DNA from: a plasmid
Reading direction: 5' to 3' (one strand)
NCBI RefSeq assembly: GCF_056712565.1
Contig: NZ_JBWXXM010000002.1
DNA length: 64,000 nt
Shown: piece by piece, positions 21,199 to 24,846 of the stretch
Layout: every line of letters begins with the position of its first letter
Position numbering within the stretch: position 1 is the stretch's first letter
Position numbers and translations under genes: made by a program
Notes under the pieces: generated by a model
What the model was told of the DNA's origin: nothing
What the model saw: the letters and a program-made list of their open reading frames with translations, nothing else
Databases searched by the model: none

Positions 21199-21609
21199 AT
21201 GGCTATTTTAGCAATCATTGCAGTTATCGCCCTGGGTGGGTACGCCTACGGATTTATTAAAACCCGTGAGCTGAGCGCTTTGCGTAAAGAAATGAAACTA
21301 TACGTGGATCGCATGGAAGCGGCGGAGCTGGACTTACACGCAATCAGAAGTGTAGCGGAGCACCGGTTGCACGGTGCAGGTAAACAGTTTGCCGACCTTT
21401 ACAGCCGTATCGACGGTGCAACTGTGACGCTGACACCCGAAGATCAGCTGTTACTGGCAACGATGCCATTTAATATTCAGGATGTAGAAGACATCGTAAA
21501 CGAGCGCGGTCCAAAGACAATTAGCGGCCGTCCATTCTGGGAAGTTGAGCCAGGCCCGCATGATTATGAATATGGCCCGCAATATCCGTATTTCCCAGAC
21601 CAGCGCTAG
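21199..21609 (+). CDS. Hypothetical membrane-anchored protein (136 aa), partner of HNH protein
   Basis: N-terminal hydrophobic helix (MAILAIIAVIALGGYAYGFI); stop 12 nt before HNH gene start. Confidence 0.45.
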   Translation: MAILAIIAVIALGGYAYGFIKTRELSALRKEMKLYVDRMEAAELDLHAIRSVAEHRLHGAGKQFADLYSRIDGATVTLTPEDQLLLATMPFNIQDVEDIVNERGPKTISGRPFWEVEPGPHDYEYGPQYPYFPDQR

Positions 21610-21621
21610 GAAGAGATCAAG

Positions 21622-22437
21622 ATGAGAGAGCCAAGACCACGCCATACCTTGCAGGTCATTCGTGTACCTTCTCTGGAGGTTCAGGACCTGGGGCTGACCA
21701 GCTTTGATAGCTGGCTTGACGAGCACGGGTATGACAAAACGAATGCCAGAAATAACCGTACCATCTGGGCGAGAGAAGGCGGATGGCATCTGAAACGTTG
21801 CAGAAATCTTGAAACTGGCACGGACGATTTCTGGTTTATCGCTTTCGATGGTAAAGGCGGGAAGATTTACCCGCTGAAAACCCAAAGAGACTACCGGGCT
21901 GCATATCGTAAGCTGGAAGCAGAAGGTTATGCGCCTGCGGTCATCGAGCAAATGACCACAGGCGCAGCATATAACCTGGCCTATCCACGTTCCATCCTAA
22001 AACAAGCTGAGACGGCCACCAGCGAGCCAATTCGGAAACCTGACGTAGATATCCAGGGTGAGCACTGCGAGCGCGTAGTGACGCAACGTAGTGGCGTGGC
22101 ACAGGGTAAATTCAAAGCTCTGCTCATCGAGAATTTCGCAGGCCGTTGTGCGGTAACCGGTTGGGTTAATGGAGGTGTCCTGGATGCGGCACACATTGAA
22201 CATGGAACCCGGTACAATCCGTCTAATGGCATCCTGATGACTCCAACAATGCATGCGCTGTTTGATGCCGATCTTATGGGCATAGATCCGGCCACCCTGA
22301 CCGTTCATTTTAAGCCAGGCATTGAGGTGGGCGAGCTGTTTGAAGGCCGTAAAATCACACCGCTGGTGTACGATCTGGACTTAGAGCGGCTGGCCGTACG
22401 CTGGGCAGAATACCAGGGCCTTGCTCAGGACCAATGA
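21622..22437 (+). CDS. HNH-type endonuclease-domain protein (271 aa)
   Basis: C-terminal HNH-like signature GRCAVTGW...LDAAHI...NGILMTPTMHALFD; AGGAAGAG RBS. Confidence 0.6.
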   Translation: MREPRPRHTLQVIRVPSLEVQDLGLTSFDSWLDEHGYDKTNARNNRTIWAREGGWHLKRCRNLETGTDDFWFIAFDGKGGKIYPLKTQRDYRAAYRKLEAEGYAPAVIEQMTTGAAYNLAYPRSILKQAETATSEPIRKPDVDIQGEHCERVVTQRSGVAQGKFKALLIENFAGRCAVTGWVNGGVLDAAHIEHGTRYNPSNGILMTPTMHALFDADLMGIDPATLTVHFKPGIEVGELFEGRKITPLVYDLDLERLAVRWAEYQGLAQDQ

Positions 22438-22690
22438 AGGGTGACAGCCAGGTTGTGCCTAAACCTGGCAGTAAAACCTGCATGCCACAAACCTTTAAAT
22501 TCTGACTCAAGAGCCTGGCACAAGATAAAAGCGAAATGAAAAGGTTAAAACCGGTGCACCAGACCTCTTAGGTTTAATACCTGAGCCAGTATACTGGCAG
22601 TCTCAGGTAAGTGGGTATCATACACTTCAGAAATATCCACACCGAGATAACCGCAACAGTTAAAGAGCTAAAAAGGACGGTTTTAATTTT

Positions 22691-23116
22691 ATGAATAAAA
22701 CAGCTTTAATTATGATTCTGGGAATCCTCGGATGTGGTAAAGCATTTGCAGCCACTGAATTACAGCTCCAGCAAAAACGCGTTATGCATTTCTGTGCCAA
22801 TGCCAGCCTTCCGTTGTTGATTGCCGGTACAACTTATGCGAATACGTCTGACAATGGACGACCAGAAAAAGAAAGAGTGGCAATCCTGAAAAATTCAGTT
22901 GCAAGCTCGACAGCTTATAAAATGGCATCTCCCGGAGTTCAGATGGCCATGATGAGCGTGGTGGAAGATATTGCCGATCCGAAAGAATTAGCTCTACATC
23001 AAAAAGAAGTTAGACGTCTTGGGGCTAGTTATCTTTCCGACAGCGGTGTTTCATGGGCTTCAAAAACTGTTTCACCATTTACAGCTTGGTGTAACTTTAA
23101 CCGTTTAGAAAGTTAA
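22691..23116 (+). CDS. Exported protein or lipoprotein candidate (141 aa)
   Basis: Signal-peptide-like N-terminus MNKTALIMILGILGCGKAFAA. Confidence 0.45.
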   Translation: MNKTALIMILGILGCGKAFAATELQLQQKRVMHFCANASLPLLIAGTTYANTSDNGRPEKERVAILKNSVASSTAYKMASPGVQMAMMSVVEDIADPKELALHQKEVRRLGASYLSDSGVSWASKTVSPFTAWCNFNRLES

Positions 23117-23664
23117 GGCTGGCAAGGCGGTTCCTGTTCAGGAAAGTTACTTTCCGTGCGGGGACCGTAAGATACAGATAAAGCTTAAGGCCTTTGAATT
23201 TTTGGAAAGCATTTGAAAATTTCATTGCGCTTGTCTGATATGAAACAGCCCCTGCATTTCTGCAAAGGCTGAAAGAGTGTGTACGGACTTTGGAAGGAGT
23301 GATGATATACGCCTGAGCCATCCCATCACCGCAGACAGGGTAATTAACCCTGACTAAAGCTTTCACCTATTCCGTCGCTCGCAAGCGGCTTTCGCACACT
23401 AACGAAGGTATGGCCTTTCGTCGGTGTTAAATTTTTCAAACTTTGCTTACTTTGTCAAGGAAGGTGACCGCAGTAGCAGGCACAACTACTTTAATCTGTA
23501 TGAATAATAAGGTAGAACCGGCCAGTGAATGAATGCTTACCCTGAAATCAGGCGGACAACCTTCAGGAATATTGATAGCAAGACTGAATCTCTCGCTGCG
23601 GCGATAAACATTTCGCCATAACCCTGAACGAGAGTGGTTCATCCATCATATACAGGAGCGTTAC

Positions 23665-23973
23665 ATGCGCAAATTTAAGTACATAATCTGTCACCAGTGC
23701 GAAGGCCACGGGACCATGGAAAACCCGGCCTTTGAAAATGGATTCACCCAATCAGAAATGGCTGAGTGGGAGCCAGAAATGCGTGAAAAGTATTTTGCCG
23801 GAGCATTTGATGTTCGCTGTAACGTTTGTGCCGGTGACGGTAAGCTCAGCGTACCAAACGTAGCGGCTATGTCTTTTTCAGAACGACGGGTTCTGGCAGC
23901 ACGGCGGCGTGATGAGCGTCTTCAGGCTGCTGATGAACGGCTGTCCCGCCAGGAACGAGCAATGGGGTACTGA
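23665..23973 (+). CDS. Small zinc-ribbon-like protein (102 aa), partner of second HNH protein
   Basis: Two CxxC pairs (CHQCEGHG ... CNVCAGDG); stop 15 nt before next gene. Confidence 0.45.
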   Translation: MRKFKYIICHQCEGHGTMENPAFENGFTQSEMAEWEPEMREKYFAGAFDVRCNVCAGDGKLSVPNVAAMSFSERRVLAARRRDERLQAADERLSRQERAMGY

Positions 23974-23988
23974 GGTGCTACAGCAAAG

Positions 23989-24846
23989 ATGAAAATGACG
24001 AAGCCAAAACCGGTAAGCCGGATGAAAAGACCGTTTATTAGTGAGCTTGCAGAGCTGGGTTTATCGGGTGAAATTCTTTCAATTCGAACTGACGGCATGC
24101 AGGGGACGCTCATACCCGATCTTACCGCAGGGGTGAGTGAAGCAGGCCGTGTGAAAACCGGCAACTGGGTAATCTCTGACAAGAGAACCTTCGACCATGT
24201 CGTTCTGTGTGTTGAAAGACAAGATGAGAACCATGATGTGTACGTAGGTAAATTCATCCAGTTACATGTAGCCGCTAATAAGAGCCTTAAGATCGTCGAA
24301 ATGGGCGATGTGAAACTGGTGGCCATAACCAGCTCGATTCCTACCACTTTTAATGGTGGGATAAAGAGATACAAAGGGGTTACGTATGTGTCACTTTCCC
24401 AAACAGCTCAAACCACTATCGACTTCCCGAAGCGTATCTACAAAGAGGGCCAGGAATGTACTTCTGTCACCAGTCCTGACCAAGGTCCTTTCGCCCGGGA
24501 TGTTAGGTTGAATTGCTACGGGCGATGTGTTGTCACCGGCGTAAGGTCCCCCTGGCGTACTGAGGCCGCGCACTTAACGCCACGTCATGAAGAAGGCATT
24601 CCCGACGTAACGAACGGAATTTTACTTCGCCGTGATATCCATACACTGTTCGACAATGACCATTGCGCCATAAACCCTGACACTATGAAAATTTACTTCA
24701 GCCGGGAGGCCCGGGAGTTGGATGATGATCTCCTGAAATGGCATGGGAATGAGATAGAGACGACACGCATGCAGGTTCCGGTTAACATCGAAAACCTTCG
24801 GATACGATGGCAAAAATTTAAGGCTAAGGATCGTCAGCGTAAATAA
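23989..24846 (+). CDS. HNH-type endonuclease-domain protein (285 aa), paralog of 21622-22437 in its C-terminal domain
   Basis: GRCVVTGV...EAAHL...NGILLRRDIHTLFD aligns with the HNH-like region of the upstream paralog. Confidence 0.6.
   Translation: MKMTKPKPVSRMKRPFISELAELGLSGEILSIRTDGMQGTLIPDLTAGVSEAGRVKTGNWVISDKRTFDHVVLCVERQDENHDVYVGKFIQLHVAANKSLKIVEMGDVKLVAITSSIPTTFNGGIKRYKGVTYVSLSQTAQTTIDFPKRIYKEGQECTSVTSPDQGPFARDVRLNCYGRCVVTGVRSPWRTEAAHLTPRHEEGIPDVTNGILLRRDIHTLFDNDHCAINPDTMKIYFSREARELDDDLLKWHGNEIETTRMQVPVNIENLRIRWQKFKAKDRQRK

Follow-up and report, generated by a model that had tools for sequence, protein, structure and literature searches.

We analyzed a 64,000-nucleotide (nt) stretch of plasmid DNA (contig NZ_JBWXXM010000002.1, hereafter the window) in which positions 21199–24846 hold two HNH nuclease genes, N1 and N2, each closely preceded by a small open reading frame (ORF), A1 and A2, respectively. 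The evidence leads us to regard N1 and N2 as probably two independent, single-chain, type IV-like (modification-dependent) restriction nucleases with differing sensors, each joining an N-terminal domain to a C-terminal HNH_2 nuclease. An earlier annotation of the window made from the sequence alone, the original prediction, had instead cast the four genes as two nuclease cassettes with variable partners, resembling diversifying defense or toxin-immunity modules. The four genes and their domains are as follows, with positions given in the window.

21199–21609, plus strand: A1, 136 amino acids (aa), with an N-terminal hydrophobic, transmembrane-like segment
21622–22437, plus strand: N1, 271 aa, two-domain nuclease
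21622–21990, plus strand: N1 aa 1–123, rare N-terminal domain
21991–22086, plus strand: N1 aa 124–155, disordered linker
22087–22434, plus strand: N1 aa 156–271, HNH_2 nuclease, predicted catalytic residues H191, N202, H211 and D215
23665–23973, plus strand: A2, 102 aa, carrying the CxxCxGxG (DnaJ-type) motif twice and ending in an Arg-rich C-terminal helix
23989–24846, plus strand: N2, 285 aa, two-domain nuclease
24031–24399, plus strand: N2 aa ~15–137, probable PUA-like beta-domain
24400–24480, plus strand: N2 aa 138–164, disordered linker
24481–24843, plus strand: N2 aa 165–285, HNH_2 nuclease, predicted catalytic residues H195, N209, H218 and D222

The four ORFs, all on the plus strand, have the lengths given in the original prediction.

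Domain architecture of the two nucleases

Pfam scans identified HNH_2 (PF13391) in both nucleases, at residues 176–222 of N1 (E=1.5e-6) and 180–229 of N2 (E=3.3e-12), and a precomputed assignment to this family is present on nearly all of their homologs. The C-terminal halves of N1 and N2 align at 27% identity over 176 columns (E=1e-12), whereas no relation between the N-terminal halves was detectable by profile-profile comparison (hhalign E=0.096, probability 0.6%), a division that the original prediction had anticipated. A shared N-terminal "DLGLT / GGWHL" motif hinted at by MAFFT was dropped on the basis of the same comparison. Calling the nuclease domains paralogous is right only in a loose sense, since for either HNH domain there are closer relatives in other proteins; the N1 domain is 52–60% identical to the C termini of proteins of 424–472 aa.

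The nearest solved relatives of the HNH_2 domain are VcaM4I and TagI, both type IV modification-dependent enzymes, and VcaM4I is the sole solved sequence relative of N1 and N2. Mutagenesis established H224, N241, D250 and D254 as VcaM4I active-site residues. H191, N202, H211 and D215 of N1, and H195, N209, H218 and D222 of N2, fall in register with these residues, and the predicted catalytic positions are invariant across both family alignments. The second metal ligand differs, being Asp in VcaM4I and His in N1 and N2. Comparison of this plasmid with a sister lineage gave ratios of nonsynonymous to synonymous substitution (dN/dS) of 0.07–0.10 for N1 and 0.11 for N2, alongside 0.11 for the neighboring HipA; N1 and N2 are under purifying selection.

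These observations bear on two related ideas: that the genes encode mobile HNH homing endonucleases, an outcome that the original prediction named as refuting its own view, or that they are decaying relics. Homing endonucleases often carry HNH domains, and PHROG families match the C-terminal halves of N1 and N2. However, only 10–14 of 50,697 phage records match N1 or N2, through the HNH domain only and at ≤41% identity, and the genes reside in a plasmid backbone, away from any phage, intron or intein. Relics are disfavored by the purifying selection and by the intact catalytic residues, and we consider this explanation extremely improbable. Across the PADLOC, NCBIfam and PHROGs profile libraries, N1 and N2 received partial nuclease-domain matches only, and A1 and A2 none beyond a below-threshold anti-TRAP score. 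Literature searches under the four RefSeq accessions returned nothing on these proteins, and papers on IncHI2 plasmids and HNH proteins yielded annotation labels only.

Relation to modification-dependent restriction enzymes

Structures were predicted for full-length N1 and N2. By structural comparison, the predicted N-terminal domain of N2 probably has a PUA-like (EVE/YTH/ASCH) fold. Its structural relatives form a coherent set that includes PD-T4-3, which is specific for 5-hydroxymethylcytosine (5hmC); EVE proteins, among them THYN1 bound to DNA containing 5-methylcytosine (5mC); a series of YTH domains; the McrB N-terminal domain bound to m5C DNA; ASCH proteins; and the PUA-like N-terminal domains of RsmE, Lon and ATP sulfurylase. 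The N-terminal domain of N1 is predicted to consist of a β-hairpin, three helices, a second β-hairpin and three more helices. A profile of this domain recovered 19 proteins among 1.84 billion representatives, and in every full-length match an HNH_2 domain follows, sometimes with a long basic extension preceding the N-terminal domain. Given this invariable fusion to HNH_2, the N1 domain appears to behave as a dedicated targeting module. One protein (P0148, 426 aa) carries an N1-type N-terminal domain followed by two tandem HNH_2 domains.

Several results of the sensor analysis weigh against our interpretation. For N2, neither profile searches of the PDB nor Pfam scans of every N-terminal domain in the N2 family gave any sequence-level support for the PUA-like fold, and because this support is absent we hold the modeled fold to be probable rather than proven. 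For N1, no convincing match emerged from structure or sequence, whether by an isolated-domain profile against the PDB or by Foldseek against AFDB50, in which HNH matches dominated; no test returned a PUA-like fold, and none identified a modified-base sensor of the EVE, SRA, YTH, ASCH or winged-helix (wH) type. Single-sequence PDB searches with either sensor domain were likewise without a match.

Modification-dependent restriction enzymes have been described by a signature comprising an N-terminal sensor, a C-terminal HNH domain and the absence of a nearby methyltransferase (PMC12191111). N2 fits this signature well, and N1 fits it save for the type of sensor. No DNA methyltransferase occurs among the annotated genes from the ter cluster to the Tn3 remnant that flank the region (see below), nor among ORFs at 17–29 kb. 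The closest counterparts are VcaM4I and TspA15I, EVE-HNH type IV enzymes (PDB 6yex; PMC7897488, PMC6765204), which like N1 and N2 are ~300 aa long with a sensor, a linker and a C-terminal HNH_2 domain in that order. VcaM4I also lacks an adjacent methyltransferase, and the PUA-like fold of its sensor would be common to it and N2, but its sensor has no sequence similarity to that of either protein. The wH-HNH and PUA-wH-HNH enzymes SruGXI and HhiV4I (PMC11037411) are comparably small (224–283 aa) sensor-HNH fusions without a methyltransferase; a further point of resemblance is the N1 domain, predicted to be a helical core between β-hairpins. For the SRA-HNH enzyme TagI (PDB 6ghs) the identity is 15–17%, and searches for an SRA domain detected none in either N1 or N2. 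PD-T4-3 from E. coli (PDB 9u75) carries a nuclease of a different class, GIY-YIG in place of HNH, and the identity is 12%. END nucleases (PMC12191111) were considered as relatives and set aside as a different family, with PLD and iEndoIII domains.

In the mechanism we propose, the N-terminal domain of each protein would bind DNA and read a modified base or another feature of foreign DNA, and the HNH_2 (beta-beta-alpha-Me) domain, tethered by the flexible linker, would cut nearby using one metal ion, with His191 of N1 or His195 of N2 as general base. By analogy to VcaM4I, N2 may flip the modified base into a pocket, licensing cleavage in its vicinity, and both proteins may act as dimers; N1 would do its reading with a rare domain different from that of N2. 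The most likely role would be to shield the plasmid's host from phages or incoming DNA bearing modifications foreign to Enterobacteriaceae, such as bases that are hydroxymethylated, glycosylated or hypermodified in some other way, or methylation in a foreign pattern. Since the hosts are Dam+ and, as a rule, Dcm+, neither G6mATC nor C5mCWGG should be among the targets. If the targets are modifications that the hosts do not make, neither a methyltransferase nor an immunity protein would be needed.

As modification-dependent enzymes, N1 and N2 would be an ordinary addition to a known class. A bolder proposal, which we put forward tentatively and consider somewhat doubtful, is that aa 1–123 of N1 constitute a previously unrecognized sensor of DNA modification or another DNA feature, defining a new type IV restriction family, and that N1 and N2 together form a two-sensor defense module of IncHI plasmids. 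The extent of the unique domain may be smaller than these boundaries imply. A "ParB-like partition protein" of Salmonella phages 7-11 and SeKF_80 matches N1 residues 77–266 (33% identity, E=5e-19); on this account the helical part at aa ~85–120 may belong with the nuclease module, leaving aa 1–76 as the unique part.

The small upstream genes A1 and A2

The original prediction was accurate on the local arrangement of the small genes. N1 starts 12 nt after A1 (TAG GAAGAGATCAAG ATG) and N2 starts 15 nt after A2 (TGA GGTGCTACAGCAAAG ATG), and both spacers contain a purine-rich stretch resembling a ribosome-binding site. The membrane anchor ascribed to A1 corresponds to an uncharged hydrophobic segment of 19 residues at its N terminus (AILAIIAVIALGGYAYGFI). 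The two CxxC motifs ascribed to A2 are present and belong to the longer DnaJ-type CxxCxGxG pattern (CHQCEGHG and CNVCAGDG). A1 and A2 are unrelated to one another. Pfam assigned no family to A1 and only weak DnaJ_CXXCXGXG matches to A2, none of them significant.

Small upstream genes placed closely before a potentially toxic enzyme are also characteristic of type II toxin-antitoxin pairs, such as the hipBA pair that, as had been stated, lies directly upstream (19204–20830). Under a toxin-antitoxin or toxin-immunity explanation, the small protein would neutralize an HNH toxin and the variable partners would reflect diversifying selection; in addition to the tight spacing, separate ribosome-binding sites and proximity to hipBA, the toxicity of the isolated VcaM4I HNH domain is in keeping with it. 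We examined the partner question across ten independent lineages, seeking A1 and A2 by tblastn.

The most direct comparison comes from the sister lineage (loci L014 and L015), in which HipA is 83%, N1 90% and N2 73% identical to the proteins studied here. There, A1 is reduced to a 70-aa, GTG-initiated remnant that has lost its transmembrane half, and A2 to a stump of 34 aa whose Cys residues are gone, SASIGTG standing where A2 has CNVCAGDG. N1 and N2 remain full length beside these decayed genes, with dN/dS of ~0.1, contrary to the expectation that an intact toxin is never kept without its antidote. On our interpretation, neither A1 nor A2 is needed for N1 and N2 to be tolerated.

The wider picture is similar: diverged N1 and N2 homologs (41–90% identity) adjoin unrelated genes or none, and in six further lineages beyond the sister lineage the genes preceding them are unrelated or absent. 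No A1 or A2 was found beside N1 or N2 homologs in lineages L002–L010 and L016–L020, and the small ORFs in those loci are unrelated to A1, A2 or the 141-aa ORF that separates the two nuclease genes here (mid141). An N1 homolog at 42% identity (P0017) adjoins an integrase and a Lamassu-type gene and has upstream only an XRE-type helix-turn-helix gene, 318 bp off. Among N2 homologs, one (P0136, 41%) immediately follows terF with no gene intervening, another (P0128, 55%) is preceded by a truncated lipoprotein gene, and a third (P0133, 46%), on a Leclercia chromosome, has an ASCH-domain gene 379 bp upstream. In the IncHI1A and IncHI1B-type backbones, the order is an N1-like gene, a 135-aa lipoprotein, in some cases a 67-aa ORF and an N2-like gene. 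Two of these settings are of separate note: P0017 (L002, 7661–10858) adjoins a tyrosine integrase, after which come genes of the CTD7, MC3 and LmuB_C (Lamassu-type) kinds, a defense-island setting, and the ASCH-domain ORF of Leclercia (L017 and L018, 4212–4622), a member of the PUA superfamily, lies near smpB.

The small genes, for their part, have homologs in other company. Full-length A1 homologs (82%, 62% and 44% identity) keep the transmembrane segment and the RMEAAELDLHAIRSV and YEYGPQYP motifs; the genes downstream of them encode a KAP NTPase or an SRAP protein, or are small ORFs. A2 homologs of ~48% identity occur in 585 IncHI1B/FIB-type plasmids with both Cys motifs kept; a 220-aa non-HNH protein, in which Pfam found nothing significant, comes next. 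No HNH gene lies near the A1 and A2 homologs in loci L011–L013 and L021–L023. In IncHI1B/FIB and related plasmids (L011 and L012), the A2 homologs sit within a run of small hypothetical genes, on whose flanks are genes for DNA methyltransferases, for a RelE/ParE toxin and for a restriction endonuclease of type II.

Nucleases without these partners, and partners without nucleases, are the pattern that the original prediction had itself listed as counting against it. Judged by sequence comparison, A1 and A2 are real conserved protein families but not conserved partners of N1 and N2, with which, unlike the partners of type II toxin-antitoxin pairs, they do not co-occur across homologous loci. Polymorphic toxin systems normally encode immunity downstream; here the downstream genes vary among lineages with no conserved immunity gene, and Pfam scans of N1 and N2 found no secretion or trafficking domains. 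We conclude that toxin-immunity cassettes are a very unlikely explanation. Of the original interpretation, the defense component remains plausible given the type IV architecture and nuclease domain, while the proposed cognate-partner cassettes find no support. The case also cautions that a small ORF tightly spaced before a nuclease does not alone indicate an immunity or antitoxin partner.

A weaker form of partnership would have standalone nucleases whose activity, localization or expression is tuned by A1, A2 or both as IncHI2-specific modulators, for example through the zinc finger of A2 or the membrane anchor of A1. The 12–15-nt spacing suggests co-transcription or translational coupling, both genes belong to conserved families, and A2 has a weak NCBIfam match (E=0.079) to anti-TRAP, itself a small zinc protein and an inhibitor of another protein. 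That match falls under any threshold, however, and proximity is the sole link, with no co-variation or co-occurrence outside this lineage; moreover, A2 at ≥95% identity is present in 613 plasmids as against ~955 for N2. We regard such modulation as rather unlikely. A1, A2 and the lipoprotein ORF mid141 are genuine genes but lineage-specific neighbors, and here they are probably co-transcribed.

The tandem in its plasmid setting

Independently of their small neighbors, N1 and N2 travel together. IncHI2A, sister-lineage, IncHI1A and IncHI1B-type plasmids all keep the N1–N2 tandem, and in each case its place is the backbone region bounded by ter/hipBA-side genes and by hns, with the gaps taken up by variable small genes. 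Its recurrence in the diverged IncHI1A, IncHI1B and IncHI2-like backbones indicates that the adjacency is not due to chance. In many IncHI2 records N1 or N2 is truncated by insertions, and the two genes are dispensable for the plasmid. A very common IncHI1A variant of N2 is missing ~70 N-terminal residues. This variant (P0134; 236 aa, 2,419 index blocks; L005–L007 and L027–L030) lacks sensor residues with its HNH domain intact, and it could represent either gene decay or a nuclease under different regulation.

Backbone conservation might alternatively indicate that the HNH proteins serve plasmid DNA transactions, such as repair, recombination, conjugative processing or competition with other plasmids. 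In line with this, some databases call the N1 N-terminal domain a DNA-binding protein, and the phage "ParB-like" protein noted above shares much of N1. The frequent truncation of N1 and N2 in otherwise complete conjugative plasmids, the presence of homologs in chromosomal islands and the fact that all of the nearest characterized relatives are restriction enzymes argue otherwise, and we judge this role unlikely.

Were N1 and N2 active type IV enzymes, IncHI2 plasmids would protect their hosts from phages with modified DNA, with a bearing on phage therapy and on plasmid-plasmid and plasmid-phage competition. IncHI2 plasmids rank among the main vehicles of multidrug resistance in Escherichia, Salmonella, Enterobacter and Klebsiella, and the IncHI plasmids with the tandem include multidrug-resistance plasmids of clinical and animal isolates. 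N1 and N2 merit modest attention both for being widespread on clinically important plasmids and for the uncharacterized sensor domain of N1, which could extend the toolkit of modification-dependent enzymes by a new type of sensor.

The region is present in ~1,000 sequenced plasmids, and positions 19000–25200 recur at 100% identity on numerous large conjugative plasmids found in Escherichia, Salmonella, Klebsiella and Enterobacter. One such plasmid, p14EC029b, types as IncHI2A, MOBH and MPF_F. Its RefSeq annotation gives the gene order as the ter (tellurite resistance) cluster, small hypothetical genes, hipB-hipA, a 68-aa ORF, A1, N1, a 141-aa ORF, A2, N2 and a Tn3-family transposase remnant, and labels both N1 and N2 "HNH endonuclease signature motif containing protein." The neighboring features are listed below; the last two went unmentioned in the original prediction.

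19204–20830, plus strand: hipB-hipA toxin-antitoxin pair, from the RefSeq annotation of the identical plasmid, context outside the nuclease genes
20891–21097: orf68, between hipBA and A1
22691–23116, plus strand: mid141, lipoprotein-like 141-aa ORF with the lipobox ILGC, between the two nuclease genes

In the sister lineage (L014) as well, hipBA precedes N1. No homolog of mid141 was found in the other loci examined, and the gene is lineage-specific filler. Other lineages have, in the slot between the nuclease genes, either a 135-aa lipoprotein without homology to mid141 or a protein of 174 aa. The 135-aa lipoprotein-like ORFs (LTGC; L016 4295–4702, L007 1235–1642 and L027 4547–4954) are positional analogs of the 141-aa mid141 without sequence similarity to it.

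The 548-bp gap that follows mid141 (23117–23664) has no annotated gene. It contains a promoter-like site at 23458–23431 (10/12 match) and a terminator-like hairpin at 23271–23246, both on the minus strand; promoter and terminator scans showed no enrichment over shuffles, and an Rfam scan of 17–27 kb returned no match. Downstream of N2, the final 15 residues of orf82 (24908–25156) are found again beside Tn3-family ends in other loci, and this ORF probably extends into the terminal repeat of a Tn3-family element, at the junction of backbone and accessory DNA. Next, at 25130–26929, come a transposase remnant and a resolvase gene. Further along the window, GC content steps from 0.35–0.40 at 43–47 kb to 0.57–0.66 at 47–53 kb, shifts that probably mark acquired accessory modules (43000–53000).

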